From: an uncultured Verrucomicrobiae bacterium
GTDB taxonomy: Bacteria; Verrucomicrobiota; Verrucomicrobiia; Limisphaerales; UBA11358
Assembly (NCBI GenBank): GCA_963802965.1
Contig: CAWDKS010000008.1
Span: 5,053-69,052 of the forward strand
Reading direction: 5' to 3'
DNA: 64,000 bases
The notes beneath the pieces are model-generated. The model had not been told where the DNA came from. It ran no database searches and saw only the letters and a program-made list of their open reading frames with translations. Within the stretch, counting starts at the first letter, position 1, and every line of letters begins with the position of its first letter. The position numbers and the translations under genes were made by a program. Shown piece by piece: positions 6,256 through 45,060 of this stretch.

Positions 6256-6356
6256 CTCCTCGTCGTCGTCCTCGTTCTCGTAATCGAACTGTGGAATTCG
6301 AGGACGAGGACGAGGACGAGAACGAGGACGAGGACGAGAACGAGGACGAGGACGAG
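6256..6356. repeat. Hairpin of inverted hexamer tandem repeats (CTCGTC / GAGGAC)
   Basis: Left arm 6256-6287; right arm (GAGGAC/GAGAAC)n at 6298-6356. Confidence 0.85.
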
Positions 6357-6401
6357 CGGGATGGGTTGCTCGTTTGAAACGGCTCGGTCATAATCCGGCC
6401 A

Positions 6402-6959
6402 GTGAAGATCTTGGTTGCCATCACCGGAGCCAGCGGCGCGCTTTATGCGCAACGCCTGCTCGATAATCTCGACCCGCGCCGGCATGAATTGAATGTCGTG
6501 ATAAGCCATTACGCGCAGCAGGTCATTGCCGGGGAATTGCCCGGTGGCCTGCGCCTGCCCGCCGGGGTCAGGACGCACAACCTCAAGAGCATGAACGCGC
6601 CGTTTGCCAGCGGGTCGAATCCGCCCGACGCCATGGTCGTCATCCCCTGCACCATGGGCACGATGGGCCGCATCGCGCACGGTTACAGCGAGGACGTGCT
6701 GCTCCGCGCCGCCGACGTGGTGTTGAAGGAACGGAAAAAATTGGTTTTGGTCCCCCGCGAAACACCGTTAAGCCTCGTTCACGTCAAAAACATGGAACTG
6801 TTGCTGCAGGCTGGGGCGACGATTCTGCCGGCGAACCCGGGGTTTTACTCGAACCCGAAAACCGTCCAGGACGTGGTGGACACCGTGGTGGCGCGCGTGC
6901 TGGATCATCTGGGCCTGCCGCAAAAGCTCGTGCCGCGCTGGTCGGAAGAAAAAGAATGA
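6402..6959 (+). CDS. ubiX: Flavin prenyltransferase UbiX
   Basis: ILVAITGASG, APFASGS, PCTMGT, RAADVVLKERKKLVLVPRETP. Confidence 0.95.
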   Translation: MKILVAITGASGALYAQRLLDNLDPRRHELNVVISHYAQQVIAGELPGGLRLPAGVRTHNLKSMNAPFASGSNPPDAMVVIPCTMGTMGRIAHGYSEDVLLRAADVVLKERKKLVLVPRETPLSLVHVKNMELLLQAGATILPANPGFYSNPKTVQDVVDTVVARVLDHLGLPQKLVPRWSEEKE

Positions 6960-6963
6960 AGAC

Positions 6964-7048
6964 TTAACGCGGAGGCGCAGAGAACGCAGAGTTGAAATGA
7001 AAAATCTTTGCGTTTCTTTCTCTACGCTCTCTGCGCCTCTGCGATGAA
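6964..7048. repeat. Hairpin of inverted 9-mer repeats (CGCAGAG-type)
   Basis: TTAACGCGGAGGCGCAGAGAACGCAGAG ... CTCTACGCTCTCTGCGCCTCTGCGATGAA. Confidence 0.8.
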
Positions 7049-7060
7049 GAAAATTCACCG

Positions 7061-7957
7061 ATGATTCAGATATTACAAAAATGGGGCGGGTTCGTCCGCT
7101 TCTCGCACACGGTCTTCGCGCTGCCGTTTGCGCTGGCGGCGATGATGGTGGCGGCGCGCGATAACCGTGGCTGGCCGGGCTGGAAAATTTTCGGACTGAT
7201 TCTCGCGGCGATGGTTTGCGCGCGAACGTGCGCGATGGCGTTCAATCGCATCGTTGACCGCAAATTCGACGCGCTGAATCCGCGCACGGCCAGGCGCCAC
7301 TTGCCCGCCGGACAAATTTCACTGACGAGCGCAATCGCGCTTTGCCTGTTGAGTGGCGTGGGATTGGTCGTTACCAGCCATTTTCTGAATCCACTGTGCT
7401 TTTATTTGTCGCCCGTCGCATTGGTGGTGGTTTGTTTTTATTCGTTCACGAAACGGTTCACGGATTGCACCCACGTTTTTCTCGGAATTTCACTGGCGCT
7501 CGCGCCGGTCGGCGCGTGGCTGGCGGTGAAAGGCGCGGATGTTTCCGTTCTGGAAATTTTGCAGATGACCGCGCTCGCGCTGGCCGTGGTTCTGTGGCTG
7601 GTCGGTTTCGACATCATTTACGCGCTGCAGGATTACGAGTTCGACAAGGCGCACGGGCTGCGCTCGCTCGTCGTGGCATGGGGACCGAAGAACGCGCTGG
7701 CGGCCGCGTTTCTGGCGCACATGATGATGTGCGGATTGCTGGTGCTGTTCGGACTGCTCTGTGGATTTCGCATCGCCTATTTCCTCGGCTGGTTTGTCAT
7801 CGTCGGCTGCCTCGTGCTGGAGCATTGGATTGCCCGCCGCCGCAGCTTGAACTGGATCAATCTCGCCTTTTTCCGCCTGAACGCGCTCGTCAGCGCCGTT
7901 TTTCTGATCGTCACCGCCGCCGAAGTGATTTTTCAAGGCGGATTCAAGCTGCGCTGA
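7061..7957 (+). CDS. mqnP: UbiA-family prenyltransferase of the futalosine pathway (MqnP-like)
   Basis: FSHTVFALPF, NRIVDRKFDALNPRT, YSFTKRFT, GFDIIYALQDYEFD; mqn gene context. Confidence 0.85.
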   Translation: MIQILQKWGGFVRFSHTVFALPFALAAMMVAARDNRGWPGWKIFGLILAAMVCARTCAMAFNRIVDRKFDALNPRTARRHLPAGQISLTSAIALCLLSGVGLVVTSHFLNPLCFYLSPVALVVVCFYSFTKRFTDCTHVFLGISLALAPVGAWLAVKGADVSVLEILQMTALALAVVLWLVGFDIIYALQDYEFDKAHGLRSLVVAWGPKNALAAAFLAHMMMCGLLVLFGLLCGFRIAYFLGWFVIVGCLVLEHWIARRRSLNWINLAFFRLNALVSAVFLIVTAAEVIFQGGFKLR

Positions 7958-8005
7958 CCGCAAACGCGAATTTGCCAAACGCGCAATTTCTGCTAATCCT
8001 GTCGC

Positions 8006-9238
8006 GTGAATTTTTTTATTCAACGCAGCGAATTGCGCGACCTCTACGACAAGGTCGCCGCCGGGGAGCGCATTTCCGAGGCCGACGCGCTGCGGCTGTT
8101 TGAATCCAAAGACCTGAACGCCGTCGGCGCCATCGCGGATTTTGCGCACCAGAAAAAAACCGGCAACAACCGCGCCAGCTACATTATCAACCGCTACGTC
8201 AACTACTCGAACTACTGCATCCTGTCGTGCCAGTTCTGCTCCTTTGCGCGCAAGAAACGCGACGCCGACGGCTTCCAATTCACGGTTGACGAAATTGTGC
8301 AAAAGGCGCGCGAGGCGTTGAAGCTCGGCATTACCGAATTGCACATCGTCGGCGGACTGCATCCGTCGCTGCCGTTCAGCTATTACACGGACATGCTCAA
8401 GGCGCTGCGCGCTTTGAATAATGAAATGGTAGGGTCGTCGCGCTGCAACGACCGGACGGCGCAGCGCGCCGTCCCTACCCAGCGCCTGCAATTGAAATGC
8501 TTCACCGCCATAGAAATTTTGCACCTCGCCTGGCTCGCCAAAAAATCCGTCGAGCAGACGTTGATTGAATTGAAAGATGCCGGACTGGATTCGCTCACCG
8601 GCGGTGGCGCGGAGATTTTCCGCAAGGAAGTCCGTTCGGCCATCGCCAAAGGCAAGGAATCCGCCGAGGAATATCTGGACGTGCATCGCACCTGGCATCG
8701 CATGGGCGGGCGCAGCACCTGCACGATGCTTTACGGCCACGTCGAATCACTGGCCGACCGCGTGGCCCATCTGCGGCAATTGCGCACGCTGCAGGACGAG
8801 ACGCACGGTTTCACCGGCTTTGTGCCGCTGCCGTATCAGCCGGAGGACAACGACATTCCTGTGGAGAATCCACCGACCGGCTTCGATTCGCTCCGCACCA
8901 TCGCCGTCAGCCGCATCTACCTGGACAACTTCGACCACGTCACCGCGTATTGGGTCGGCCTCGGCCTGAAGCTGGCGCAGGTGGCGTTGAGCTACGGCGC
9001 GGACGATCTGCATGGCACCATCATCGAAGAACACATCTTCCACATGGCCGGCGCGACCTCACCGCAGTTGCAGACGGAAGCGGACATGATCAAGGCCATC
9101 CGTGAAGCCGGACGCACGCCGATCCAACGCAACACCTTCTACGAGCCGATAAAAATTCTGGAAAACGCGCCAGAGCCCGAAGCGACGGAAAATTCAGTGC
9201 GTTCCAAGGTGCTGGAGGATAATCTGGCGACGGCATGA
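8006..9238 (+). CDS. mqnE: Aminofutalosine synthase MqnE (radical SAM)
   Basis: NYSNYCILSCQFCSF (CxxxCxxC), ELHIVGGLHP, GGGAEIF, TMLYGHVE, GTIIEEHIFHMAGA. Confidence 0.9.
   Translation: MNFFIQRSELRDLYDKVAAGERISEADALRLFESKDLNAVGAIADFAHQKKTGNNRASYIINRYVNYSNYCILSCQFCSFARKKRDADGFQFTVDEIVQKAREALKLGITELHIVGGLHPSLPFSYYTDMLKALRALNNEMVGSSRCNDRTAQRAVPTQRLQLKCFTAIEILHLAWLAKKSVEQTLIELKDAGLDSLTGGGAEIFRKEVRSAIAKGKESAEEYLDVHRTWHRMGGRSTCTMLYGHVESLADRVAHLRQLRTLQDETHGFTGFVPLPYQPEDNDIPVENPPTGFDSLRTIAVSRIYLDNFDHVTAYWVGLGLKLAQVALSYGADDLHGTIIEEHIFHMAGATSPQLQTEADMIKAIREAGRTPIQRNTFYEPIKILENAPEPEATENSVRSKVLEDNLATA
8428..8479 (+). repeat. GTAG-type REP doublet, family A, in frame in mqnE
   Basis: Peptide VGSSRCNDRTAQRAVPT; same architecture as 2842-2893. 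Confidence 0.88.
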
Positions 9239-9309
9239 CGCAGGACGTTTCGAAACCATACATCGGCCCGGCGCATTCTTTCCGCGCCGCGCCGGTCCGT
9301 TATCTAGCG

Positions 9310-10029
9310 ATGTCCCTGCTTTTGATATTGCTGCTGACCGGCTGCTCAACCGTGACAACGTATAAATCGAACATGGCTGCCGGACCAGCGAAGCCGCTTG
9401 GCTATCCCGTTCTCGTCTATACGGAGGACATGACGGTTCCCCGGCCGTGCGAGGTGATCGGGACGGTTTCCATCGGCGACAGCTACTTCACCATGATTGG
9501 TGGATCGGTCGAAAGCGAGATGGCAAAGGTGATGCGAACCGCCCGGGAAAAGGGCGCCGACGCCGTGCAGATGAAGTCGGTCGAAAAACCGGGTTTTTCA
9601 GATGCGAATTATCACCTGGTGGCCGACCTGCTCCGCTACACGGATATTTGGGAGACCATTGCCATTCCGGAGCAGGAGTTCGCCAATTATCTCGACACAA
9701 ACCGGCGGAACCTCGACCCGATTGAAGGGGTCTGGAACGGGAACGGACAGATTCCGCACCGCATCGGCATCATGAGAGATAATTCAAAGCCGGGCCGGGA
9801 TTTCATCGGCGTTATTCTTAACACGGAAAATCCGACGTGGCACAAAGGCTACAAAAAAATTGACATCCATCGCGGCCCCCAACCCGGAACCTACCTTTTC
9901 GACTACTACCTCGACGATTTCAGCAAACGGGAAACCACCATTATTTTGGGCGCGGGAATGACATTCACGCTGGCCATCCCGACATCTGATGAAAAAACCG
10001 ACCTCATCACCTATTCCAAGAACAGGTAA
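9310..10029 (+). CDS. Lipoprotein with a YbjQ-like (heavy-metal-binding-like) domain
   Basis: Lipobox LLTGC; PRPCEVIGTV...AREKGADAV. The ORF extends upstream to 9235, which may be a relic (see findings). Confidence 0.6.
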   Translation: MSLLLILLLTGCSTVTTYKSNMAAGPAKPLGYPVLVYTEDMTVPRPCEVIGTVSIGDSYFTMIGGSVESEMAKVMRTAREKGADAVQMKSVEKPGFSDANYHLVADLLRYTDIWETIAIPEQEFANYLDTNRRNLDPIEGVWNGNGQIPHRIGIMRDNSKPGRDFIGVILNTENPTWHKGYKKIDIHRGPQPGTYLFDYYLDDFSKRETTIILGAGMTFTLAIPTSDEKTDLITYSKNR

Positions 10030-10043
10030 TTCACGTAAATCCT

Positions 10044-10868
10044 TTGGACCATTCACCGACTGAAATGCCCGCCGCCGAAGTTCCAAAATTCCGCATCGGC
10101 TCGGTGCAATATCTCAACGCCGTGCCGCTCACGCGCGGCATCGAGGACCAGGTCATTTTCGCCACGCCCGCCGAACTCGCCGAAATGCTCCGGCGCGATG
10201 AACTCGACGCCGCGCTCGTCAGCACAGCGGAGGTTTTGCTCACCGACCGCTATGACATTCTCGACGGCGTTGCCATCGCGTCGCTGGGCGAGGTTTACAG
10301 CGTGCTGCTGGCTCATCGCCGGCCTCTCGCGGAGTTAAAGGAGATTTTCTGTCATACCGCGTCGCTGTCGGGCTTGAATCTTTTGAAGGTTCTGCTGGCG
10401 GAACGCGGGTTGAAGCCGGAATTCAAGCCGCTGCCCGACCCGCAAACGGCGGCGGAACACGACGCGGTGCTGCTCATCGGCGATCCGGCGATTGATTTCC
10501 AACGCTCCCGTCCGCCTTCGCGCGATTCCGGCGCGACAAGCACTCCGCACGAAATTTTCGATCTTGGCACGGCATGGTACGAACTGACCCATCTGCCGTT
10601 TGTGTTTGCCGTCTGGGCATTGCGACGCGGCATCGAGAACAAGGAACTGCGCCGCGAACTGCTGGAAGCCAGACAATTCGGCCTCGAAACGCTGGATTAC
10701 CTCATCGAAACCCGCGCGGAATACGACGAGAATTTCCGCCGGGATTACCTCGGCTGGCACGTGCATTACCACCTGGCCTCGGACGAAAAGCGCGGCATTG
10801 CGAAATTCGCAGAACTGCTCCAGAAACACGGGCTGGGGCCGGTGTTTGAACCAAAATATGTTTCGTAA
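10044..10868 (+). CDS. mqnA: Chorismate dehydratase MqnA
   Basis: RIGSVQYLNAVPL, LLIGDPAI, DLGTAWYELTHLPFVFAVW; start uncertain (10044 or 10065). Confidence 0.9.
   Translation: MDHSPTEMPAAEVPKFRIGSVQYLNAVPLTRGIEDQVIFATPAELAEMLRRDELDAALVSTAEVLLTDRYDILDGVAIASLGEVYSVLLAHRRPLAELKEIFCHTASLSGLNLLKVLLAERGLKPEFKPLPDPQTAAEHDAVLLIGDPAIDFQRSRPPSRDSGATSTPHEIFDLGTAWYELTHLPFVFAVWALRRGIENKELRRELLEARQFGLETLDYLIETRAEYDENFRRDYLGWHVHYHLASDEKRGIAKFAELLQKHGLGPVFEPKYVS
10510..10541 (+). repeat. CCGCCTT...CGGCGCGACA repeat, family E, in frame in mqnA
   Basis: Peptide RPPSRDSGATS; siblings at about 29333 and 47378-47446. Confidence 0.65.
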
Positions 10869-10871
10869 AAT

Positions 10872-10933
10872 GGGAGGGTCGCCGTGTCGGCGACCCAAAT
10901 TTTGTTTTGGGATGGCGACACGCCGTCCCTCCC
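10872..10933. repeat. GGAG-type REP doublet, family D, between convergent genes (possible terminator)
   Basis: GGGAGGG...CCCTCCC termini; siblings at 60130-60187 (in metH) and 37267-37290. Confidence 0.82.
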
Positions 10934-10934
10934 G

Positions 10935-11684
10935 TTAATTTTCCTTTTCCAATCGCGCCAGTGTTTCCGGGTCGCGCACGTCCGCCCAGCGGCCTTGAAT
11001 CTCCAGCCCGGCCAGCTTTTGTCCGGCAGCGACCATCGCGCTGATGGCGTCGGTCAATTCGTATTCGCCGCGCGGCGACTTTTGCAGCCGCGCCGTGAAA
11101 CCGAACAGCGCCGGGCGGAAAATATAAATACCCGCGTTATACCAGACCGGCATGTTGGGCTTGAGCCAGCCGTCACGGCGCAATTCTTCCAACTGCTCCG
11201 GCGCCGGTTTTTCCACAAGCCGTTTCAGACAAAATTGTTCGTCGAAAAAATTCACGCCGCCCTTCGCCACGTCCTCGCCGCGCGTGACGGTGATGACGCC
11301 CGCGAAATCGCCTTCGCCGAAACGCCGGAGCATTTGCGGATAGGTTGCGGGTGGAACGAGAATGTCGCCGTAAGTCAGCAGAAACGGCGAGTCGCCGACG
11401 AACTCCTTCGCCACTTCCGGCGCCTTGCCCGTGCCGTCCTGGACGATTTGTCGTCCGAACGCGATGCTTGCATCGAATTTTTTGCCGTTACCAAAATGGT
11501 TTTCGACAATCTCGGCGCGCCAGCCAGTGACGATGAAAATGTCGCGGATGCCAGCCGCCAGAATTCCGGCAACGATGTGCTCGAGGATGGGTTTGCCCTG
11601 GACGCGGAGCATGGGCTTCGGCAACTCATTGGTGAGTTCCCGCATGCGCGTGCCCTTGCCGGCAGCCAGAATCACAGCCTTCAC
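10935..11684 (-). CDS. Sugar-phosphate nucleotidyltransferase
   Basis: MKAVILAAGKGTRM, PKPML, YGD, VEKP, SPRGEYELTDA. Confidence 0.92.
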   Translation of the reverse strand: MKAVILAAGKGTRMRELTNELPKPMLRVQGKPILEHIVAGILAAGIRDIFIVTGWRAEIVENHFGNGKKFDASIAFGRQIVQDGTGKAPEVAKEFVGDSPFLLTYGDILVPPATYPQMLRRFGEGDFAGVITVTRGEDVAKGGVNFFDEQFCLKRLVEKPAPEQLEELRRDGWLKPNMPVWYNAGIYIFRPALFGFTARLQKSPRGEYELTDAISAMVAAGQKLAGLEIQGRWADVRDPETLARLEKEN

Positions 11685-11693
11685 GAGCGAAAT

Positions 11694-11767
11694 TTAACCA
11701 CGGATGGACACGGATGAACACGGATTTTTGAGGCCAGGAAGTTTAAATCTGCACAATCCGCGGTTAA
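11694..11767. repeat. Hairpin of inverted 10-mer repeats (CACGGATGAA-type)
   Basis: TTAACCACGGATGGACACGGATGAACACGGAT ... AATCCGCGGTTAA; overlaps the PfkB stop codon. Confidence 0.78.
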
Positions 11768-12663
11768 AACTTCGTCAGCTTCTCCAATTCCCGGACGCGG
11801 CGGTCAATGTGAGCGCGCTTGATTTTGGTGGTTCGGGTCAGGCCAAAACCTTCACAGCAGAACGAGGCCACGACACTGCCGTAAATCATCGCGCGGCGGA
11901 GGTTCGCCTCCACCGGGCCCCGCGCCGTCGCCAGATGCCCCATCAAACCGCCGGCAAACGAATCGCCCGCGCCGGTCGGGTCCACGAGCTTTTTCAGGGG
12001 ATAGGCCGGCGCGACAAACATGCCGTTTGGCGACGACAAAATCGCGCCGTGTTCGCCCTTCTTGATGATGACATGGCGCGGGCCGAGCTTGTGAAGCCTG
12101 GGCAGCGCGGCAATGACATTGTCTTCCTTCGTCAACTGGTGCGCTTCGCTGTCGTTGAGGATGAACAGGTCCACGCGCTTGAGCAGGCGCAGCAAATCCG
12201 GCAGCGCGATGTTCAGCCACAAATCCATCGTGTCGGCGGCGACAAAGCGCGGACGCGCCATCTGGTCGAGCACGTGGTGTTGGAGCGCGGGCGCGATGTT
12301 CGCCAGCAGAACGAACGACACGCGCCGGTGGGATTCCGGCAGCGTGGGCGTGAAAGTCTCGAACACACCGAGTTCGGTTTCGAGCGTGCGACGGCGGTTC
12401 ATGTTCACCTCGTATTCGCCCGACCAGTGGAAGGTTTTGCCGGGGCAAATTTGCAGGCCTTCAAGGTCAATTTTATGCCGCCGGTAGAGCTGGAGATATT
12501 TCTTCGGAAAATCGTCACCGACGACCCCGATCAATTTGACCGGGCTAAAAAAGCTTGCGGCCACGGCGGCGTGGCTGGCCGACCCGCCCAGCAGGCGCGG
12601 ATTTTCCGCGTTCGGAGTTTTGATGGAATCCAACGCGGTGGAGCCGACAATTAAAACGCTCAT
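11764..12663 (-). CDS. PfkB-family carbohydrate kinase
   Basis: LGGSASHAA, NDSEA, KKGEHGA, DPTGAGDSFAGG. Confidence 0.93.
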   Translation of the reverse strand: MSVLIVGSTALDSIKTPNAENPRLLGGSASHAAVAASFFSPVKLIGVVGDDFPKKYLQLYRRHKIDLEGLQICPGKTFHWSGEYEVNMNRRRTLETELGVFETFTPTLPESHRRVSFVLLANIAPALQHHVLDQMARPRFVAADTMDLWLNIALPDLLRLLKRVDLFILNDSEAHQLTKEDNVIAALPRLHKLGPRHVIIKKGEHGAILSSPNGMFVAPAYPLKKLVDPTGAGDSFAGGLMGHLATARGPVEANLRRAMIYGSVVASFCCEGFGLTRTTKIKRAHIDRRVRELEKLTKF

Positions 12664-12686
12664 GTTAATAATTTTTGAAGCGAAAT

Positions 12687-13409
12687 CTAAGGACGGAATC
12701 GAATAGCTAACATTGTGACTTGTGTGTCACCATCGGGAAGATTTTTTATATCTTGCAACACAAGGGCATCAGCCTCTTTTGAAATAGCAACAGCGGCCAG
12801 TTGTTTGCCCGCCATTCCACTGCTTACGGTTGTGCCTAGAACATCGTAAGGTTTTTCTGGAGAATCAAAATAGCACGAAATACCGTTGATTATCTGCTTG
12901 GGAGATCCTGTTTTAATCGGCCAATCTTGTTGTTTTGCAGTATAAGGTGTGAAATCTATTTTAACAGGGAAGTTTGCCTGCTTGGTAATTTCATCGGCCG
13001 TTTCAAATTTGATGGCAGCATATCTGGCGGTGGTGGCATAGACAGGGACACTTACGGAAGTGCCAAAGGCCGATGCAAAATATGGGTTGCCGGAGGCATA
13101 GGCATTTCCAGTTGTTAGGTTTCCGCGATAAGAAGTATTGGCATCAATAAAAATAAGCGCGTCGGCACCTTTAGACTTGGCGATGCGGGCTGCATCGAAA
13201 CGATCGCGCGTATTAAGTTCGCCAATTATCTTATACTCTTTACTGGGCGCGCTGGAATAAATTGGAATAGCAAGCCCTTCAGTTTCGACTGCGGCGTAGA
13301 TTCCAGTTCTGCCAACTAAAGGTTGTTCCATTGGTGCGAAAACCGTGCGAGGGTTGTAAGCGCAGCCAGCCAATAAGGCAGTTGAAAATGCAAAAATGAT
13401 AATTTTCAT
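12687..13409 (-). CDS. Low-GC lipoprotein with two YbjQ-like repeats
   Basis: Lipobox LAGC; PSKEYKIIG...AKSKGADALI and PEKPYDVLG...AISKEADALV; AT-rich. Confidence 0.62.
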   Translation of the reverse strand: MKIIIFAFSTALLAGCAYNPRTVFAPMEQPLVGRTGIYAAVETEGLAIPIYSSAPSKEYKIIGELNTRDRFDAARIAKSKGADALIFIDANTSYRGNLTTGNAYASGNPYFASAFGTSVSVPVYATTARYAAIKFETADEITKQANFPVKIDFTPYTAKQQDWPIKTGSPKQIINGISCYFDSPEKPYDVLGTTVSSGMAGKQLAAVAISKEADALVLQDIKNLPDGDTQVTMLAIRFRP

Positions 13410-13434
13410 ACGAACTTGTTTTGGATTTTCAGTT

Positions 13435-13830
13435 TTAGTAGCCGCCTTTGCCCTTTTGGATCAATTCGATTTCGTAGCCTTCCGGCGCGTCAACGAACGC
13501 GAAGACCGTGCCGGTGGAAGTGGTCGTCGGGCCGTCGGAATATTTCAGGCCGTGTTTTGCCAGATTCCGGCCGAACTCCTCAAGGCTGTCCACCTCGAAA
13601 GCCAGATGCGTGAGGTCGGGCTGCACCTGCACCGGGCCGCCAGCCGGAAAACTGCAGATTTCAATCTCTTCGTCGCTGGCGGGCGCCTTGAGAAAAACGA
13701 GTTCGGAGCCGCGCGGCGATTTGTGCCGCTTGATTTCCTGAAGGCCCAGCACGTCGCGGTAAAACTTGAGGGTGCGTTCCAGATCGTTCACGCGGTAGCG
13801 CGTGTGCAGCAGCTTGTTGACCTTGCTCAT
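13435..13830 (-). CDS. VOC family protein / lactoylglutathione lyase
   Basis: LLHTRYRVNDLERTLKFY, HLAFEV, APEGYEIELI. Confidence 0.88.
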   Translation of the reverse strand: MSKVNKLLHTRYRVNDLERTLKFYRDVLGLQEIKRHKSPRGSELVFLKAPASDEEIEICSFPAGGPVQVQPDLTHLAFEVDSLEEFGRNLAKHGLKYSDGPTTTSTGTVFAFVDAPEGYEIELIQKGKGGY

Positions 13831-13848
13831 GTGCGAAGTTTTAACAAG

Positions 13849-13933
13849 TCCAATGTCCAAAGTGCAATGTCCAAAGTGCGCCGCATTGTTTGACTTTGGA
13901 CTTTAGACTTTGGATTTTAGAGTTTAGAATTTG
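13849..13933. repeat. Hairpin of inverted heptamer repeats (TCCAAAG / GACTTTG)
   Basis: Four heptamers, a spacer, then six complementary heptamers between divergent genes. Confidence 0.8.
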
Positions 13934-13937
13934 ATTT

Positions 13938-14438
13938 ATGGGCAAACGCCGTGAAGCGCGCGAACGCGCCGTGCAATTTTTGTTTCAGCACGATTTGAAT
14001 CCGCCGGAGGATTTGGACCGGGCGCTCAATGAATTTTGGGACACACAACGCGCGGCGGCCATCGCCGAGGAAAAAGGCCCGGCGACGTGGGGCCAGCCCC
14101 ACGAACTGCCGCCGCCCACCGCCGGGGAGGCCGAGACGCGGTTGTTTGCCGACCCGCTCATCCGCGGCGTGGTCGAGCACCGCGAGGAAATTGACACGCG
14201 CATCCGGGGACACGCGAAAAACTGGGAGTTCCATCGCATCGCCACGGTGGACCGCAACATCATGCGGCTGGCGATTTACGAAATGCTGTTCCGCGAGGAC
14301 ATCCCGCCCATCGTCAGCATCAACGAGGCGGTGGATATTGCCAAAAAGTTTTCCACGCAGGACAGCGGCAAGTTCGTCAATGGCATCCTGGACAAGGTGA
14401 AGGGCGAATTGTTGCGCCCTGCCAGAATTGTGAAATGA
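13938..14438 (+). CDS. nusB: Transcription antitermination factor NusB
   Basis: RREARERAVQFLFQ, DRNIMRLAIYE, INEAVDIAKKFS, FVNGILD. Confidence 0.95.
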   Translation: MGKRREARERAVQFLFQHDLNPPEDLDRALNEFWDTQRAAAIAEEKGPATWGQPHELPPPTAGEAETRLFADPLIRGVVEHREEIDTRIRGHAKNWEFHRIATVDRNIMRLAIYEMLFREDIPPIVSINEAVDIAKKFSTQDSGKFVNGILDKVKGELLRPARIVK

Positions 14439-15280
14439 AATTCGCCGATCTCCATCTGCACACGAATTTTTCCGACGGCACGTTTTCGCCGGAGGAGCTG
14501 GCCGGACACGCCCAGCGGCTCGGCTTCGCGGCGCTCGCGTTGACAGACCATGATTCGGTCGAAGGCTGCGCGCGCATGGCGGCGGTTTGCGGCGCGGCGG
14601 GCATTGAATTTATCACCGGCACGGAACTCACCGCCGAGCACAACGACACCGAACTTCATCTGCTCGGCTATTTCGTGGACACGCAAAATGAAAAATTCCT
14701 CGTGGATATCGCCCGGTTCCAGGGCGTCCGGCAGGACCGCATCCGCGAGATGGTGGCGCGCCTCAACAAATTGAACGTGCCATTGGAGGTGGAAACCGTT
14801 TTTGCGCTGGCCAATTGCAAATCACCCGGACGCCCGCACGTCGCGCGCGCCCTCGTGCAGGCCGGGCTTTGCAAATCGCTCGACGAGGCGTTCGAGCGTT
14901 TTCTCAAAAAAAACCGTCCGGCGTGGGTGCCCAAGGCCAAGATGTCCGCGCTCGAAGGTGTCGAGTTGATTCATCAGGCCGGCGGGCTGGCGGTGATGGC
15001 GCACCCCGGCTTGAACCGCACGGACGATGTCATCCCCGTGCTCGTGGACGCCGGGCTGGACGGCATCGAATGTTTTCACACGAAACACTCGACGGCGACG
15101 TCCGCGCGCTATCTGGAAATCGCCGGCAAATTTCATCTGCTCGTGACGGGCGGCTCCGACTGCCACGGCTTCAGCAAGGGCAAACCGCTCATCGGCACCG
15201 TCAAGCTGCCTTATGAACACGTGGAAAAATTGAAGCAGAAACACGATGAAGCGTTGAAGAGTTTAAGCGTTAGACCGTGA
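14435..15280 (+). CDS. PHP-domain phosphoesterase
   Basis: DLHLHTNFSDG, TDHD, GRPHVARAL, AHP, TGGSDCHG. Confidence 0.92.
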   Translation: MKFADLHLHTNFSDGTFSPEELAGHAQRLGFAALALTDHDSVEGCARMAAVCGAAGIEFITGTELTAEHNDTELHLLGYFVDTQNEKFLVDIARFQGVRQDRIREMVARLNKLNVPLEVETVFALANCKSPGRPHVARALVQAGLCKSLDEAFERFLKKNRPAWVPKAKMSALEGVELIHQAGGLAVMAHPGLNRTDDVIPVLVDAGLDGIECFHTKHSTATSARYLEIAGKFHLLVTGGSDCHGFSKGKPLIGTVKLPYEHVEKLKQKHDEALKSLSVRP

Positions 15281-15319
15281 ACGCCGCTTCAACGCTTGAA
15301 CCCTTCAACGCTTTAACGC
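15244..15319. repeat. Hairpin of inverted octamer repeats (CGTTGAAG / CTTCAACG)
   Basis: Left arm 15244-15274 lies inside the PHP 3' end; right arm 15288-15319 abuts the ftsY start. Confidence 0.75.
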
Positions 15320-15320
15320 G

Positions 15321-16256
15321 ATGAATTTGTTCCAAAAATTCAAAGCCGGCCTGCAAAAAACCCACAGCCAGCTGGCCCGCGAAATTAAGCGCATCGTCAC
15401 GCGCTCGCCGAAGCTGGACGCGGCATCGCTGGAAGAACTTGAAGCCGCGCTCATTGCCGCCGACCTCGGCCCAACCGTGACGGCGCAGATCGTCGCCGCT
15501 GTCAAACAAGCCTACGAATCGCAGGGAACGACCGGCCACGACGTGTTCGCCATCGCGCGTGCTGAAGTCGAAAAGAATCTTTTGACGGACACGCCCGGCT
15601 TGATCAAGGCCGCGCATGGGCCGACCGTGGTTTCCGTCGTTGGCGTCAACGGCACGGGCAAGACCACCACGGCCGCCAAGCTCGCGCACCTGATTCAATC
15701 GCAGAAGAAAACCGCCTTGCTGGCCGCGTGCGACACGTTTCGCGCGGCGGCGATTGAGCAGATCAAATTGTGGGGACAACGATTGAAGGTCGAAGTCATT
15801 GCCGGCGCTTACGGCGCGGACGCGGCGTCCGTGGCGCACGACGCCGTCACCGCCGCGCAAGCGCGCAAGGCGGATTACCTCTTCATTGACACGGCGGGCC
15901 GCCTGCACACGAAGCACAACTTGATGCAGGAATTGCAGAAGCTCCATCGCGTCATCGGCAAGCAGCTCGCTGGCGCGCCGCACGAGGTGCTGCTGGTGCT
16001 CGACGCGACGACCGGCATGAACGCGCTGAACCAGGCGCGCGAATTCCACAAGGCCGTGCCGCTCACCGGCCTGGTGGTGACCAAGCTCGACGGCACGAGC
16101 AAAGGCGGCATGGTGGTGGCGATCCAGCAGGAACTCGGCCTGCCCATCAAATTCATCGGCCTCGGCGAGCAGCCGGACGATTTGCAGCCCTTCGATGCCA
16201 AACAGTTCGCGGAGGCATTGTTTGCGGATGAAGGATTCGCGGGCAAGCGCGATTGA
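15321..16256 (+). CDS. ftsY: Signal recognition particle receptor FtsY
   Basis: GVNGTGKTTT, DTFRAAA, DTAGRLH, TKLDGTSKGG. Confidence 0.96.
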   Translation: MNLFQKFKAGLQKTHSQLAREIKRIVTRSPKLDAASLEELEAALIAADLGPTVTAQIVAAVKQAYESQGTTGHDVFAIARAEVEKNLLTDTPGLIKAAHGPTVVSVVGVNGTGKTTTAAKLAHLIQSQKKTALLAACDTFRAAAIEQIKLWGQRLKVEVIAGAYGADAASVAHDAVTAAQARKADYLFIDTAGRLHTKHNLMQELQKLHRVIGKQLAGAPHEVLLVLDATTGMNALNQAREFHKAVPLTGLVVTKLDGTSKGGMVVAIQQELGLPIKFIGLGEQPDDLQPFDAKQFAEALFADEGFAGKRD

Positions 16257-16300
16257 GGCTTGTCCAAGGCAGTTCTGACCTATAGAAAATGCCCCAGCGC

Positions 16301-18508: not shown

Positions 18509-18733
18509 TCTTCCCAACTCCCCTGGCAATTTTGATCCAGGCGAATGCCTTCCGGTTGGGAAACCTCAATTCCAGGGGCACACTCCCCTGAAGCGTTTTT
18601 CGGTGATGCAGATTTGTGATGTTCAAAATCCGTGCCCCTCCGTCCCGTATTGCGGGATCCGTGGTTGATTTTCATTCCGGCTCGCAACCCTTTCCGTTTG
18701 AGCCTGTTCCCGTCAACGGCTACGCTGCGCACG

Positions 18734-19984: not shown

Positions 19985-20027
19985 ACACGGCTCGACGGAG
20001 TCTCGCCCCACCGTTAAGGTGGTGAGA

Positions 20028-30897: not shown

Positions 30898-30933
30898 AAT
30901 TTGTTCCGGGTTTGCCGTGCAACCGAACAGAAA

Positions 30934-31729: not shown

Positions 31730-31800
31730 AGAAGACAGGTCAGTTCCAGAAAATGATGGCCCGCATGGGCGGTGGCCTGCCGGGAATGTTGCGGAGATAA
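31726..31800 (+). pseudogene. Diverged duplicate of the last 25 codons of ffh
   Basis: Reads LKKTGQFQKMMARMGGGLPGMLRR* versus ffh MKKMGKFTKMMAKMGGGLPGMLRR*; 56/75 nt identical to 30823-30897. Confidence 0.9.
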
Positions 31801-31849
31801 AATCGGTGAATCGACCTCTCAACGATTTCACTTTTGCTCAAAATAATGT

Positions 31850-36487: not shown

Positions 36488-36651
36488 ATGGTGATCAATG
36501 CCTGTATACGACATTGATGCTGCTAAGCCGCCCGCCCTTGCCAACCAAACTCCTCGCGCCCCTTCAGGGCGCATATTTTTGTGGGACGATTTCCGTAGCG
36601 CCTTCAGCGCATTTCAGTTTGCGCCAATTCGTGCAATTCGTGTCAAAATCT

Positions 36652-37206: not shown

Positions 37207-37352
37207 GCGGGAAATTTAATCCCGCAAGGCGGGAATGTCGCGGATTGATTTTCAAAGTTCAAATGCGGACGGCGACACGCCGTCCCTCCCAAAATGAAAA
37301 CGGCGTTTTGCATTTCATTCGGTGCACGCAAGGATTAAAATGCGGTTGTCGT

Positions 37353-40124: not shown

Positions 40125-40126
40125 GG

Positions 40127-40585: not shown

Positions 40586-40630
40586 GCGACCTTCTCCAGA
40601 GTTTTGTCATGCCGCCGGACGAATCCAGGT

Positions 40631-41038: not shown

Positions 41039-41981
41039 ACATCAATGCCCCCAAGCCGATGGGCATGGTGAACAACAAGCCGACGCAGCACAGTAACACG
41101 CCAACGACGTTGAGCAAGCTCACCAAAACAAACAATCCAAAAACCAACCACCAATGTTTGTTGACCATTTTCCAACTCGTCTTCATCGCCTGCCAAAATT
41201 CCATTTGCTTGTCCATGATGAGCGGCAGGGTGAAGGACCAGCTTATCTGCAAATATACCGTCGGAATCAGGCATATCAATAAAACCGGCAGGATAACCGG
41301 AAGCTGGTTCTCAAAGACCTGGGTGATCATTTGGGGGTCCGGGGCCGCGCCATGCGCGGCCGCAGCCGCACGCACAATCCCAATGACCAGCACAATGAGG
41401 AAAGGAATCATGCATAAACCCGTCAGCAATCCGCGCACGAGATAACCGAGAAAAAGCTGCAGGAAAGCCTTGCGAAACCCGGCAAATACATCGCCAACCT
41501 CCGCCGGTTGGCCGCGGATCGCCTGGATAAACATGTAAAAAACGCCGCCCATCAACGGTCCGGTAATGAACAGATTCGCAATCGAGAACAGCGGGCCGAT
41601 AATGGGAATCGAGCCCAAACCCGCAATGGCGCCTACGATCAGGAAGTAAATCAAAACGCCGGCGAAGAGCAGCCCGAAATTATTTTTCAACAATGTCCAT
41701 CCGCGGCCGATGCAACCGCCAATGTCGAGATCGTAATCACGTTCCAGCAGGTTGGCGGATGAGACCGATGCCGGTGGTGGCAGTGTTTCTGGAGCTGCGG
41801 CCGCGAGCGCGGCCGCGAATTCCGGGAACCCCCCGAGCGGACGAAATTCCACATCGTCTTCCACCTTTGCCAACGTCTGCGCGTTGAGCCGGCCCTCGGC
41901 AATCCATCGGCGCATGTCTTCCGCCGAAACCATGCTGTATTCCTTTTGGTCGCCGCCGATGATTTTATACATGACTGCCAT
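40992..41981 (-). CDS. GYF_2 domain + multi-TM membrane protein
   Basis: MYKIIGGDQKEY...WIAEGRLNAQT...FPEF; about 6 TM segments ending GVLLCCVGLLFT. Confidence 0.8.
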   Translation of the reverse strand: MAVMYKIIGGDQKEYSMVSAEDMRRWIAEGRLNAQTLAKVEDDVEFRPLGGFPEFAAALAAAAPETLPPPASVSSANLLERDYDLDIGGCIGRGWTLLKNNFGLLFAGVLIYFLIVGAIAGLGSIPIIGPLFSIANLFITGPLMGGVFYMFIQAIRGQPAEVGDVFAGFRKAFLQLFLGYLVRGLLTGLCMIPFLIVLVIGIVRAAAAAHGAAPDPQMITQVFENQLPVILPVLLICLIPTVYLQISWSFTLPLIMDKQMEFWQAMKTSWKMVNKHWWLVFGLFVLVSLLNVVGVLLCCVGLLFTMPIGLGALMYAYETIFSSAGSQTG

Positions 41982-42014
41982 TTTGAGTTACACGGGAATT
42001 GGGTTGTTTCCGGT

Positions 42015-42899
42015 TCATGGATCCCAACGAAGTGTGTTGATCTGTGATTCGCGCAATTGCCGGACGCTGCCGTCCGCAAAGGCAACCACGAACAATCGGT
42101 CGTGACGCGGTTTGCCAATCATCAGTTCCGGGCCGCCATTCGCGTTCCAGCCGCCGTCCGACTCAAAAATCATCACGGTGTCCGGGGCGATTTTGCTTCC
42201 GTCCATGCCGCCCAATTTGGCGTTGAAGGCATAATCGCAGCGGCTGCTGGAATTCGCGGCGGCACATTTGAAGGCTTTTCCCGATCCAACGTTGACTTTG
42301 ATGGCGTCGCACCAGTTTGCAGCGGGCGGTAATTGTCCGTTGTGATCACCGGAATAAATTTTTACGGCTACCGCAAGTTGCGTTTCGTTGTTCACGCAAT
42401 TAATGGCCTCGGCTTTTTGCTTCGCCGCCGCCAATGCCGGAAGCAGCATGGCGGCGAAAATCGGAATCATGATCACAAAGATTGAGGACACGATCACCCC
42501 GGCCAGCGCGAAGCCATTGACTCCCAGCGCGCTCCGGTTCTGTTTGGCCTTTACCAGGGCAATGATTCCAAAAACCAATCCAAACAACGCCGTGAAGCCG
42601 CAGGTGAACAGTCCCAAAATCCCCAGCACCAGCGAGGTAATGGCCAGGCCGTTGGTGTTTGCAGGCAGGGGCGGCGCGGCGGACGGCAAAGACGGTGGCG
42701 TGCCGGAGACGGCGGACCTGGTGGCGAGCGCGGCGGCGAATTCGGGAAAAGCCGAGAGCGGACGCCATTCCGCATCGCTCTCCGCCTTTGCCTGGGATTG
42801 CGGGTTCAGCCGGCCATCCAAAATCCATTGGCGCAACTGTTCCTCCGTTACCGGGCCATATTCTTTTTGATCGCCCCCGATGAGGATGTAGGTCGCCAT
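42015..42899 (-). CDS. GYF_2 + DUF4190 + pilin-like helix / H-X9-DG protein
   Basis: YILIGGDQKEYGPV; TNGLAITSLVLGILG; AMLLPALAAAKQKA...CVNN; HDRLFVVAFADG. Confidence 0.78.
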   Translation of the reverse strand: MATYILIGGDQKEYGPVTEEQLRQWILDGRLNPQSQAKAESDAEWRPLSAFPEFAAALATRSAVSGTPPSLPSAAPPLPANTNGLAITSLVLGILGLFTCGFTALFGLVFGIIALVKAKQNRSALGVNGFALAGVIVSSIFVIMIPIFAAMLLPALAAAKQKAEAINCVNNETQLAVAVKIYSGDHNGQLPPAANWCDAIKVNVGSGKAFKCAAANSSSRCDYAFNAKLGGMDGSKIAPDTVMIFESDGGWNANGGPELMIGKPRHDRLFVVAFADGSVRQLRESQINTLRWDP

Positions 42900-42960
42900 A
42901 ATTTTGTCCCGCGTTTGCCGACTTCTAGTCCATCGCGCGAATTGACGCAAGCCGTTTCGC

Positions 42961-44067
42961 TCACGTGTTCCGCACAAACAATTTTCCCGGCAATTGCCTG
43001 ACCACCCGTTTCATTTCCAAACCCAGCAACGCCACGCTCGCCGCCGAACTCGGCAGGCCGCTGCGCCGGATCACCTCGTCAATGGAGGATTCCTCGTGGT
43101 TCAGCGCGTCATAGACTTTCCGCTCGTTTTCGCCCAGTTCAAGCGCGGGCAGCACGCCGGTTTCGCCCGGTGACGGCGGACGATTGCTGGCCGGGAACAG
43201 ATATTCGAACTCGCTCAAAATGTCCTCCGCGCCTTCGCACAGCTTCGCGCCTTTTTTGATCAAATCGTGGCAGCCCTTGCTGCGCGGTGAATCAATCCGG
43301 CCCGGCACGGCAAAAACCTGCCGGCCGTATTCCGTCGCAAAATTCGACGTGATGAGCGCGCCGCTGTGCAGGTCGGCCTCGACCACCACCGTGCCCAGGG
43401 TCATGCCGGCAATGATGCGGTTGCGGATGGCAAAGGATTGTTTGTCGCCGTTGCGGTTGAAGGGGAATTGCGTGATGACCGCGCCGTTCTCCGCGATGCG
43501 CGTGAACAAATCCCGGTTCTCCGGCGGGAACACCAGGTTGATGCCCGTGCCCAGCACGCACACCGTCCGTCCTTTCGCCGCCAGCGCGCCCTGGTGCGCC
43601 GCCGTGTCAATGCCGCGCGCGCCGCCGCTCACGACCGTCACGCCGACGTAGGCCAGTTGATACGCCAGCTTGCGCGCGGTCTCGAGGCCGTAATGCGTCG
43701 TCATCCGCGAGCCGACCATCGCCACGGCGCTTTTGTCCTTCGCAGTCAGGGCGCCTTTGACGTAAAGCACCAGCGGCGGGTCGTATATTTGCCGGAGCGA
43801 TTCGGGATAATCGCCATCAGATTGGATCAAAACGTGGCAGCCGAACTCCTGAATGCGCCTAAGTTCACTCGCAAGGTCAATGGCCTTTTCCCATCCGACA
43901 ATCGCGTCGGCGGTTTCCTCGCCGATATTGCGGACGCGGAGCAGTTCGTGTCGGGATGCCTGAAGAATCCTGGGCGCGTCGCCGAAATGTTCGAGCAACA
44001 GCCGCGCGCGCACCGGCCCGACGTGCTCGACCAAGTTCAAAACAATGAGCGCTTCTTTCGGTTCCAC
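42961..44067 (-). CDS. dprA: DNA-processing protein DprA
   Basis: DPPLVLY, VGSR, VSGGARGID, RNRIIAG, SGALIT, AVPG, LIKKGA. Confidence 0.95.
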   Translation of the reverse strand: MEPKEALIVLNLVEHVGPVRARLLLEHFGDAPRILQASRHELLRVRNIGEETADAIVGWEKAIDLASELRRIQEFGCHVLIQSDGDYPESLRQIYDPPLVLYVKGALTAKDKSAVAMVGSRMTTHYGLETARKLAYQLAYVGVTVVSGGARGIDTAAHQGALAAKGRTVCVLGTGINLVFPPENRDLFTRIAENGAVITQFPFNRNGDKQSFAIRNRIIAGMTLGTVVVEADLHSGALITSNFATEYGRQVFAVPGRIDSPRSKGCHDLIKKGAKLCEGAEDILSEFEYLFPASNRPPSPGETGVLPALELGENERKVYDALNHEESSIDEVIRRSGLPSSAASVALLGLEMKRVVRQLPGKLFVRNT

Positions 44068-44155
44068 GCAGCTTCAATAACTTTTTATGATTTGTACCGC
44101 AAGCAAAAGCTGTGCGCACCGTTGCAATTCTCAAATTTTCTGCTACTGATGGCGT

Positions 44156-44980
44156 GTGCCTGATCCCAGCTTGCTGCTGCTCATTCCGGCTTACAACGAG
44201 GCCCGCCGCATCGAACCGGTGCTGCGCGATTACGCGGAATTTTTCAGGCTGAATTATTCCGGCGAATTCCAAATCGTCGTCGTGCTCAACGGTTGCACGG
44301 ACAACACGCTCGGCGTGGTGCGTCGCGTCGCGGCGGAATTTTCCGCCGTTCACACGCTCGAATTTCGCGAGGCCATCGGCAAGGGCGGCGCGCTCATCGA
44401 AGGCCTCAAGCTCGCAACACATGCGGATTTGATCGGCTACACCGACGCCGACGGGGCAACGCCGCCGCGCGCCTTTCTCGAATTGGTCCGGCACGTCGGC
44501 GAGGCCGATTGCGTCATCGGCTCGCGCTGGATTCGTGGCGCGGTCATTCATCAGTCACAGGCCGGCCACCGGCAATTTGCCAGCCGCGCGTTCCATTTGA
44601 TTGTGCAAGTGTTCTTTTGGTTGAACATCCACGACACGCAGTGCGGCGCGAAGGTGCTGAAACGCGAGGTCGTCGAAAAAATCCATCCCTACCTGCGCAT
44701 CGCCGACATGGCGTTCGACATCAATCTGCTGGTGGCCATCAAACGCGCGGGCTTTCGCATCCTCGAAGTGCCGACCGAATGGACGGACCAGGCCGGTTCC
44801 AAAGTCATGTTGTTTCACTCCTCGCTGGCCATGTTCCTTTCCGTGGTGCGGTTGTGGTTGATCTACTGGCCATTCGTTTACAAATTAATGCGCCCGCTGC
44901 GCCCGTTGGAAGGCTGGGTTTACAAAAAACTGCGCGCGCCGCCGCCGTTGCCCGGACCGGACTTGAGAGATGGGAGATAG
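44156..44980 (+). CDS. GT2 glycosyltransferase (dolichyl-phosphate glucosyltransferase-like)
   Basis: IPAYNEA, GKGGAL, DADG, IGSR, DTQCGAK. Confidence 0.9.
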   Translation: MPDPSLLLLIPAYNEARRIEPVLRDYAEFFRLNYSGEFQIVVVLNGCTDNTLGVVRRVAAEFSAVHTLEFREAIGKGGALIEGLKLATHADLIGYTDADGATPPRAFLELVRHVGEADCVIGSRWIRGAVIHQSQAGHRQFASRAFHLIVQVFFWLNIHDTQCGAKVLKREVVEKIHPYLRIADMAFDINLLVAIKRAGFRILEVPTEWTDQAGSKVMLFHSSLAMFLSVVRLWLIYWPFVYKLMRPLRPLEGWVYKKLRAPPPLPGPDLRDGR

Positions 44981-45060
44981 CAGATCGAAGTTGAGGTGGC
45001 TTGGTTGAAGTGAAAACCATCATTTCTCCCCATCTCCAAACTGCTGTCTCCGATCTCCGG
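44966..45060. repeat. Inverted heptamer (GGAGATG-type) hairpin overlapping two convergent 3' ends
   Basis: AGAGATG GGAGATA GCAGATC ... CATTTCTCCCCATCTCC...GATCTCC. Confidence 0.65.

Follow-up and report, generated by a model that had tools for sequence, protein, structure and literature searches.

What are long stem-loops with arms built of short tandem repeats doing in the gene spacers of a bacterial chromosome? The question is raised by a 64,000-nucleotide (nt) stretch of contig CAWDKS010000008.1, which we call the window and by which we mean the whole stretch that was analysed. Judged from its sequence, it looks like a piece of a Limisphaerales-like Verrucomicrobiota chromosome from a soil-type bacterium, and a Pfam map shows ordinary housekeeping genes end to end (ubiX, ubiA, futalosine-pathway genes, nusB, ftsY, ribD/E, addB, ffh, obg, metH and others). 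Between such genes lie hairpins in which an array of a short unit is followed by an array of its reverse complement. The reading that we favour, to which we give about an even chance, is that these hairpins are members without an open reading frame (ORF) of a widespread, poorly described class of tandem-armed junction stem-loops, the ORF-bearing form of which carries a gene of the S23p family (PF05635; Avd-like, a pentameric four-helix bundle). That ORF-bearing form has been described in one setting, as the “intervening sequence” found in 23S rRNA. The window hairpins, in other words, appear to be kin, without the gene, of a little-understood selfish cassette that carries a small ring-forming protein in other bacteria.

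A preliminary description of this DNA had listed eight hairpin loci with one common architecture, a unit array, a spacer and the reverse-complement array. We expressed hairpin strength as the z score of the RNA fold against 200 dinucleotide shuffles, for each strand, and arm periodicity as the gapless autocorrelation at lags of 5–12 against 2000 shuffles per arm (Table 1). The coordinates given for the eight loci proved correct to within a few bases. Six of them are strong hairpins (z −3.1 to −7.9), and the five of these with significantly periodic arms stand as described. Hairpin B at 6964-7048 stands on weaker ground, being only weakly periodic; in the TRF output it appears as 2.9 copies with indels (score 36). 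The loci at 18628-18668 and 36625-36645 did not hold up. The common architecture, taken as at least three tandem 6–10-nt units with a nearby reverse-complement array in intergenic DNA, is complete in A, D and E and partial in C and H. Loops of the window hairpins measure 8–30 nt.

Periodic arms are not a general property of hairpins in this DNA. Eight arms of five other window hairpins (2842, 4203, 4984/5033, 10884/10910, 48441/48489) served as a control and were not periodic (p 0.23–0.90), with the exception of the arm at 2842-2861, which was marginal (p=0.046). A crude gapless hairpin finder returned nine hairpins with arms of at least 20 nt, against a mean of 1.2 (maximum 3) in 20 Markov shuffles, and two hairpins with periodic arms against none in the shuffles; this finder overlooked the loci at 15244, 11694 and 44962. 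A search of the whole window with Rfam at gathering thresholds gave two tRNAs, no rRNA and no other known structured RNA, and at E≤1 on 6000-19000, 13 of the 15 matches were sub-threshold matches of microRNA-precursor families to the hairpins, a generic long-hairpin signal.

Table 1. Tandem-armed hairpins and related repeat arrays of the window. Fold z is given for the + / − strand with the region folded; lags and p values are followed by the arm regions tested.
Feature	Positions	Strand	Arms or units	Fold z (region)	Periodicity	Genomic position
Hairpin A	6254-6362		left arm TCCTCG x4.2 (6257-6281), right arm CGAGGA x9.7 (6299-6356)	−6.1 / −5.8 (6250-6365)	lag 6, p≤0.0005 for both arms (6254-6288, 6297-6362)	spacer between divergent amidase gene (−) and ubiX (+)
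Hairpin B	6964-7048	+	GCGCAGAG / CTCTGCGC type	−6.4 / −7.1 (6960-7052)	gapless periodicity not significant, p=0.31 (6968-6991), p=0.56 (7020-7043)	from 5 nt past ubiX stop codon to 13 nt ahead of ubiA start codon
Hairpin C	11694-11767	−	arm TTAACCACGGATGGACACGGATGAACACGGAT, period 10; imperfect partner arm	−3.1 / −2.7 (11690-11770)	lag 10, p≤0.0005 (11694-11728); partner arm not periodic, p=0.29 (11745-11767)	between pfkB stop codon and a point 10 nt ahead of nucleotidyltransferase start; both genes on − strand
Hairpin D	13846-13937		left arm GTCCAAT/GTCCAAA x3.9, right arm GACTTTR x5.9	−3.8 / −4.5 (13843-13937)	lag 7, p≤0.0005 for both arms (13846-13879, 13889-13937)	whole spacer between divergent glyoxalase-family gene (−) and nusB (+)
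Hairpin E	15244-15319	+	left arm CGTTGAAG, right arm CTTCAACG, period 8	−7.9 / −7.7 (15240-15322)	lag 8, p≤0.0005 for both arms (15244-15271, 15291-15318)	left arm codes for last residues of PHP-domain gene (stop codon 15278-15280); right arm ends 2 nt ahead of ftsY start codon
Hairpin H	44962-45060		arms of GGAGATR type (left) and YATCTCC type (right), imperfect, with period 7	−4.3 / −4.2 (44958-45064)	lag 7, p=0.001 (44962-44990), p=0.035 (45025-45060)	overlaps 3' ends of two convergent genes
Degenerate relative of hairpin C arm family	18628-18668		ATCCGTG ... ATCCGTGGTTGA	−2.0 / −2.0 (18620-18675)	not periodic, p=0.35	upstream of ribD
Direct 9-mer pair, outside the hairpin class	36625-36645	+	two copies of CAATTCGTG, without inverted partner
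Unpaired array	50737-50768	−	CCCTCAA on − strand			directly upstream of rpmA start codon
Perfect heptamer array	27385-27416	−	GTTGAGG x4.6			addB coding sequence; peptide TLNPQPSTLNF
Perfect heptamer array	26443-26475	−	GATTGAC x4.7			addB coding sequence; peptide QSSIVNRQSSI
Perfect heptamer array	19686-19712	+	CGGCAAC x3.9			variable loop of ribD

The evidence that such arms can carry a gene comes from other genomes. In a Terriglobales locus (L079; loci are numbered L001 onwards), arms of GGCTTTT x4.7 and GCCAAAA x4.6 enclose an ORF of 139 residues between dprA and topA, and the encoded protein matches PF05635 (E=7e-32), TIGR02436 (“four helix bundle protein”) and the solved structure of XCC0516 (PDB 2gsc, E=2.5e-18). 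This protein was used as a query against plasmids and returned 23 records, 18 of which were analysed. Each of the 18 plasmid-borne PF05635 genes has tandem arrays of period 7 or 8 directly next to it, making 19 of 19 with L079, which bears out the suggestion in the preliminary description that arms of this kind flank small four-helix-bundle genes. The arrays are inverted and on both sides of the gene in 14 plasmid cases, on the 3' side only in three, and direct in one. At other junctions in 50 kb of the plasmid pNPUN01, inverted arrays were found in 3 of 40 cases (Fisher p=1.6e-7, a value that overstates the number of independent cases because many of the plasmid cassettes are related by descent). 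The PF05635 family itself is very large, with at least 7991 members (7991 of 8000 candidates scored at E≤1e-10), and it resembles Avd (PMC10053308). Avd is a protein of diversity-generating retroelements.

The anatomy of these cassettes is regular. The 5' array adjoins the S23p gene's start codon and the 3' array overlaps its stop codon, and the G-richer arm lies 5' in L079 and in all 14 plasmid cassettes with inverted arms. The same polarity is seen in hairpins at co-directional junctions, in the window and at other loci: the G-richer arm is 5' in 9 of 12, two are neutral, and the one opposite case depends on a doubtful gene call (sign test run as 10 vs 1, p=0.012, a rough figure). Each cluster of S23p proteins (at least 60% identity) has its own arm unit. 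The L079 protein is 51–52% identical to two cyanobacterial S23p proteins, and the arm unit AAAAGCY is common to all three; AAAAGCY arms go with the L079, L081 and L082 proteins, which are 51–72% identical. The preliminary description had proposed testing whether each period co-occurs with one small protein family; in this comparison it is the arm unit that goes with the protein cluster.

A second check was to look for filled and empty alleles at orthologous sites, and these were found in Nostoc plasmids, though no filled allele was found at the window's own junctions. Four Nostoc plasmids share a conserved operon of three genes in which a GGAGTCA-armed cassette lies between the first and second genes while the second and third abut; in a fifth Nostoc plasmid a GGGGAAA-armed cassette lies between the second and third genes while the first and second abut. 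The cassettes sit exactly between stop and start codons. An “ATG” is present on both sides of one of them; the other shows no clear duplication. In two of the Nostoc plasmids, ORF-less GGAGTCA-armed hairpins lie one junction upstream of the filled cassette.

Two further observations on S23p genes may be recorded here. A Nostoc plasmid (L098, 686-1250) has a truncated S23p gene of the GGAGTCA-armed type followed by further GGAGTCA arrays, which suggests a cassette in decay, part-way from the filled to the empty state. S23p cassettes also lie within CRISPR-Cas operons, in the cas6/cas4 gap of a Pseudanabaena plasmid (L081) and in the cas10/cmr2-cmr3 gap of a Picosynechococcus plasmid (L096).

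How the window hairpins themselves have fared can be followed in related genomes. A search with the window's MqnA gave 80 loci; the closest 22 (L001-L021 and L027) are 63–87% identical and mostly labelled Verrucomicrobiota, Limisphaerales or Pedosphaera. Gene order in the relatives was established by tblastn and the junction sequences were then read. Hairpin A is kept in three of the four genomes having the amidase|ubiX junction (window, L007 and L009), with 9.7 copies in its right arm in the window versus about 4 in the other two. At ubiX|ubiA the hairpin B family is found in the window and L009, the period-10 family of hairpin C takes its place in L007, with two nested GC-rich hairpins, and L011 and L021 have no spacer. 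The left arm of hairpin C is present in five of six genomes: it is identical at 38/38 positions in L019, where the flanking proteins are 76–84% identical to the window's, near-identical in L005 and partly kept in L002, and in L001 two of its three period-10 units carry the same G-to-A change. Hairpin D occurs in four of six genomes (window, L001, L003 and L005, where the loop in the last holds a further, nested hairpin some 120 nt long) and is absent from L002 and L019. The php|ftsY junction holds an array hairpin in six of six genomes, with four different unit types: CGTTGAAG; CGTTGAA; GTCGAGG, either with a complementary arm or with a non-complementary TCCGCAC arm; and nested period-10 and GCGCAGAGG families. 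In the relatives, then, the hairpins are inherited at the same junctions, altered in copy number or unit, replaced by other arm families, or absent.

Four loci in the search (L010, L018, L015 and L022) are labelled Bifidobacteriaceae, Bifidobacterium, Akkermansia and Nitrospinaceae, respectively. These taxon (bin) labels are probably wrong, because the MqnA proteins of these loci resemble the window's (56–70% identity) as those of Verrucomicrobiota loci do. A separate observation concerns hairpin A, whose right arm (6297-6377), read in the ubiX frame, would give an acidic run (EDEDEDENEDED...), perhaps a micro-ORF or an extension of UbiX. By eye, L009 has this frame running on into ubiX, a stop codon closes it in the window, and L007 has it out of frame.

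The units had been called unrelated, and this is true in part; several of them have family members at further loci and in further genomes. To define such families, we relied on exact or long matches only. The three-unit arm TTTAACCACGGATGRACACRGATGRACACGGAT is present at a minimum of four non-orthologous junctions. The period-10 arm has a constant three-unit form and a constant terminus, (T)TTAACCACGGATGRACACRGATGRACACGGAT, at such junctions in L007, L019 and the window's lineage; the arm of hairpin C is found at other junctions in L007 and L019 as well, and the hairpin B family recurs at php|ftsY in L019. The hexamer CACGGA, with 634 occurrences in 1.31 Mb, recurs at a 10-nt spacing 13 times and only once at any other spacing up to 16. 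The array ahead of rpmA is 94% identical over 32 nt to the GTTGAGG array within addB (27382-27413). Outgroups have the same architecture and in part the same units, among them Thermoanaerobaculia (ACACGGACGA), Methylacidiphilum (GGTTGAG), Terriglobales and several others. That the window arms belong to dispersed families and are not slippage noise is supported by these matches. Period 7 dominates in the relatives, with 26 of 45 arrays, versus 9 of 53 in the outgroups. Two cruder measures were tried and dropped: the density of TRF arrays alone, which does not separate relatives from outgroups as the period does, and the clustering of units at up to one mismatch, which chains unrelated heptamers, such matches being expected by chance.

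Similar arrays are found within genes. Three sites in addB (26443-26475, 27052-27075 and 27385-27416) encode 7-residue-periodic peptides in most of 40 homologues (63–78% identity), with units that differ from one homologue to another by one or two bases (SAIRNPQ, SAIGNRQ, SSIVNRQ, NSELRTP, SPVTRHP), and one homologue lacks exactly 7 residues, that is, three units. The variable loops of RibD show the same behaviour. Arrays are therefore old; they change by the spread of unit variants and, within genes, in three-unit steps.

The preliminary description knew of no mechanism and proposed a candidate new system. That was overstated, as related cases are in print (PMC4990558, PMC4692102, PMC2700814). 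The closest is the 23S rRNA intervening sequence of Coxiella burnetii, Leptospira and others, in which terminal inverted repeats form a long stem whose 5' arm holds purine-rich tandem heptamers just ahead of the ORF start (PMC4990558). The element of C. burnetii measures 428 nt and is regarded as selfish; it combines a terminal stem of 28 bp with an S23p ORF, and RNase III excises it; two to three tandem heptamers, their number depending on the strain, lie upstream of the ORF start, and the S23p protein of X. campestris is cited as a homopentameric ring (PMC4990558). The window hairpins are like it in their stems (z −3.8 to −7.9 for A, B, D, E and H, and −3.1 for C) and in the periodic arms of A, C (one arm), D, E and H, though not of B. 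They are unlike it in lying in mRNA spacers, between protein-coding genes and not in helix 25 or 45 of 23S rRNA, with no rRNA in the window, in lacking an ORF and in having longer arrays of periods 6–10. Since no ORF lies in their loops, they can be at most ORF-less relatives of the S23p intervening sequences. ORF-less intervening sequences are known from rRNA. No paper that links S23p genes to repeat arms outside rRNA (the Coxiella case) was found in the literature, judged from search listings.

Other repeats come close in one respect or another. Xanthomonas genomes have 70–75 convergent pairs of inverted GGGAATC heptamer arrays each, capable of forming stem-loops, with a type that is kept between species and a length that varies; the authors read them as G-quadruplex formers (PMC4692102). 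The supplement of the same report shows a GGGAATC x4 array over the start codon of XCC0516 and an inverted array pair between groES and groEL. The window hairpins are likewise intergenic inverted pairs of tandem arrays, but Xanthomonas has one dominant G-rich unit, for which the authors drew no link to S23p, whereas the window has several unrelated units, most of them unable to form quadruplexes. In Geobacter metallireducens, three classes of arrays (classes 1–3; GTTGCTYN, TCTCCGTS[Y], MTYCTGA) consist of 3–5 tandem 7–9-mers paired on opposite strands at a variable distance; they are multicopy and occur within operons too, as in the proB/proA gap (PMC2700814). They differ in being read as binding sites of the IHF/HU type, and in having insertion sequences at a fixed distance from some of them (PMC2700814). 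The TAACTGA repeats are tandem heptamers in non-coding DNA, a few nt upstream of start codons (PMC4679880), and heptamer tandem repeats were reported in 2007 to be over-represented among bacterial simple repeats, with no detailed account since (PMC4692102). Like the TAACTGA repeats, the cyanobacterial STRR are described mainly as direct arrays and not as hairpins; Mazel et al. reportedly characterized them in 1990 as tandem heptamers in non-coding DNA. The REP, BIME and REPIN elements are short extragenic palindromes in operon spacers, non-autonomous, long-lived and arranged in inverted pairs. They differ in that each REP unit is an imperfect palindrome of 20–40 nt, has a head that is conserved and needs a RAYT transposase, whereas the window arms are tandem arrays and the window has no RAYT gene.

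In the working that we propose, an element would come to lie exactly between a stop codon and the next start codon, or between convergent or divergent genes. It would be transcribed together with its neighbours and form a long stem that has its G-richer arm on the 5' side and its C-richer arm on the 3' side, and RNase III would cleave this stem as it does in the rRNA intervening sequence, so that the insertion would be harmless within an operon; by the same analogy, the window hairpins would be cut by RNase III. The element would be long-lived, its arms altered by slippage and by the spread of unit variants (concerted evolution), while whole elements would be lost or replaced. Presence, absence and replacement by other arm types suggest that the window copies may be mobile, and as members of the class they would derive from, or depend on, S23p cassettes. 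A bolder proposal, which we think rather unlikely, is that S23p proteins recognise the tandem-repeat arms of their own cassettes, with about one subunit per unit (a ratio suggested because the arrays typically have 3–5 units), and that they move, copy or process these cassettes together with ORF-less hairpins having matching arms, as a transposase serves its miniature derivatives. If this were true, the bacterial heptamer excess, the 23S rRNA intervening sequences and the Geobacter “regulator sites” would be one mobile system settling at stop|start junctions, and the window hairpins would be its non-autonomous members in Verrucomicrobiota.

It is worth pointing out what this frame would bring together. 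S23p is a family with a solved structure and without an assigned function, and it is tied here to heptamer repeats by the cassette anatomy, the cluster-specific arm units and the filled and empty alleles. Placing the window hairpins, and similar ones in several phyla, in one frame with the rRNA intervening sequences turns three orphan observations into one testable model. For annotation, the model would account for odd C-terminal tails of genes and for 7-residue-periodic insertions in conserved enzymes.

Several results weigh against the kinship of the window hairpins with S23p cassettes. No PF05635 protein was found among the 88 ORFs scanned in the window, nor by jackhmmer among 8604 ORFs from the window and the 80 loci, L079 aside. 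None of the window units matched those of the S23p clusters; there are only loose resemblances, of CGAGGA to the Azospirillum unit GAGGACG and of GGAGATG to the Picosynechococcus unit AGGAGATA. The evidence for cargo comes almost entirely from cyanobacterial plasmids, with many cassettes kin by descent, and the direction of cause may be the reverse, with S23p genes inserting into pre-existing hairpins. No relative has a gene enclosed by the arms at the window's junctions, where nothing but small nested hairpins, rich in GC, is seen (L005, L007); the extra DNA at these junctions in L001, L003, L005 and L019 consists of ordinary genes beside the arms, not between them. The idea of empty shells is partly supported: the arms form dispersed families and cargo is enclosed elsewhere, in L079 and in the plasmids, but no cargo was found at the window's own junctions. 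Compensating changes in orthologous hairpins are few (1 of 27 and 2 of 25 pairs, with a positive covariation term, in alignments confounded by register shifts). Neither strand folds consistently better than the other, so nothing favours RNA over DNA as the relevant level. Finally, the TCCGCAC x4 right arm at php|ftsY in L002 and L003 does not complement the left arm; its sequence is like that of the local loop, from which it looks to have been amplified. Together with the arrays that persist in coding regions, it shows that in-place slippage alone can build arrays.

This last point leads to the rival explanations. The hairpins could be a mutational by-product: intergenic stems would gain tandem arms by replication slippage, and template switching (quasi-palindrome correction) would copy changes between the arms, with neither mobility nor a dedicated protein. 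The amplified arm of L002 and L003 fits such an origin, and so do the varying copy number of hairpin A among orthologues (9.7 vs about 4), the shared change in two period-10 units of L001, the tolerance of repetitive arms for register shifts, and the addB arrays, which stay at the same three sites in most of the 40 orthologues with single-base unit differences and one three-unit loss. We nevertheless consider this account unlikely, as it does not explain why arms that are identical or nearly so, with a fixed terminus, turn up in different genomes and at junctions that are not orthologous, why unit families are common to several phyla, why whole cassettes are present or absent at exact stop|start junctions, or why arm units track S23p protein clusters, nor is the dominance of period 7 predicted by slippage alone. 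A little less likely still, in our estimation, is regulation of the host genes in cis, in which the arrays would bind a multimeric DNA- or RNA-binding regulator, or the hairpins would couple translation by masking a downstream start until the upstream ribosome opens the stem. Arrays do abut the start codons of ubiA, ftsY, rpmA, nusB and the nucleotidyltransferase gene, in B, C and E the 5' arm has the upstream stop codon inside it or at its foot, the polarity relative to transcription is consistent, and the arm sequence of hairpin C is strongly conserved; regulator sites were also proposed earlier for the paired arrays of G. metallireducens (PMC2700814) and, at the post-transcriptional level, for the TAACTGA repeats (PMC4679880). 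Yet the genes concerned form no coherent regulon, no regulator was identified, the units at one and the same junction are unrelated between related species and missing from others, and translational coupling cannot apply to hairpins between divergent or convergent genes.

It is also conceivable, if improbable, that the tandem-arm hairpins are primary and independent and that S23p genes are secondary invaders, the hairpins offering their loops to S23p genes and small palindromes alike, in which case the window hairpins would owe S23p nothing. ORF-less hairpins outnumber filled ones by 3 to 1 in the 50 kb of pNPUN01 examined, small hairpins are nested in the loops of hairpins in L005, L007 and L019, and no S23p gene was found in about 394 kb of the relatives, all of which this order of events would accommodate. 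It is harder to reconcile with arm units that track S23p clusters, across phyla too, as AAAAGCY does with the L079, L081 and L082 proteins, and a 5' array at the start codon with a 3' array over the stop codon fits one unit better than repeated independent invasion. Rho-independent transcription termination, which the stable stems in intergenic DNA bring to mind, and above all hairpin H, lying between convergent genes and followed by UUUU on the + strand, is a very remote explanation. Divergent gene starts flank hairpins A and D, whereas B, C and E belong to co-directional pairs and end 2–13 nt short of the next start codon, and none of A–E has a U-tract after it; H itself has UUUU on one side only. 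A consensus scan of 5000-20000 lists no stem as a terminator, except a 5-bp fragment inside C. By their placement and missing U-tracts, simple terminators are ruled out for A–E.

A few other identities were tried and set aside. REP or REPIN elements do not match, the arms being direct arrays and not palindromic, and no Y1 transposase occurs among the 88 window ORFs. CsrA-type GGA sites, −35-like TTGAC boxes, Chi-like motifs and pairs of Shine-Dalgarno and anti-Shine-Dalgarno sequences each fit some units only. A promoter-like TTTAGA-17-TAGAAT in the right arm of D was given no weight, the region having three promoter-like sites versus 4.6 expected. With regard to the criteria for miniature inverted-repeat transposable elements, hairpin C has TTAA on both sides, itself part of the palindrome, and no parent insertion sequence was seen.

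The window has other features besides the tandem-armed hairpins. Between 32000 and 37300 the G+C content drops to 0.49–0.56, and this segment, which may be an acquired defence-type island, holds a helix-turn-helix gene, a tetratricopeptide-repeat protein, an unknown gene and a helicase of the Schlafen-group-3 type (PF09848, E=4e-84). Neighbouring small genes with DUF2283 and DUF4258 domains at 861-1487 (− strand) have the appearance of a toxin-antitoxin-type pair, and a 44-nt repeat lies on either side of them, at 761-804 and 1409-1452. The 3' end of ffh (30824-30900) is duplicated about 900 nt downstream at 31727-31803 with 77% identity, and two adjacent genes for GYF-domain membrane proteins have a 160-nt stretch in common (41803-41962 and 42724-42883, 76% identity). 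A small repeat, GGACGGCGACACGCCGTCCCTCCC, occurs at 10910-10934, 37267-37291 and 60164-60188 in copies that are 92–100% identical, one of which forms the strong hairpin in the gap from mqnA to the nucleotidyltransferase gene convergent with it. Three copies of a 57-nt repeat family with a double hairpin (GGTAGGGTCG...CCCTACC) are present, at 2841-2897, 8427-8483 and 19140-19196; the latter two lie in frame within the coding sequences of an mqnE-like gene and of ribD, respectively, and the RibD proteins of L001 and L002 have “RRAEDCAPC” peptide insertions that are related to this repeat.

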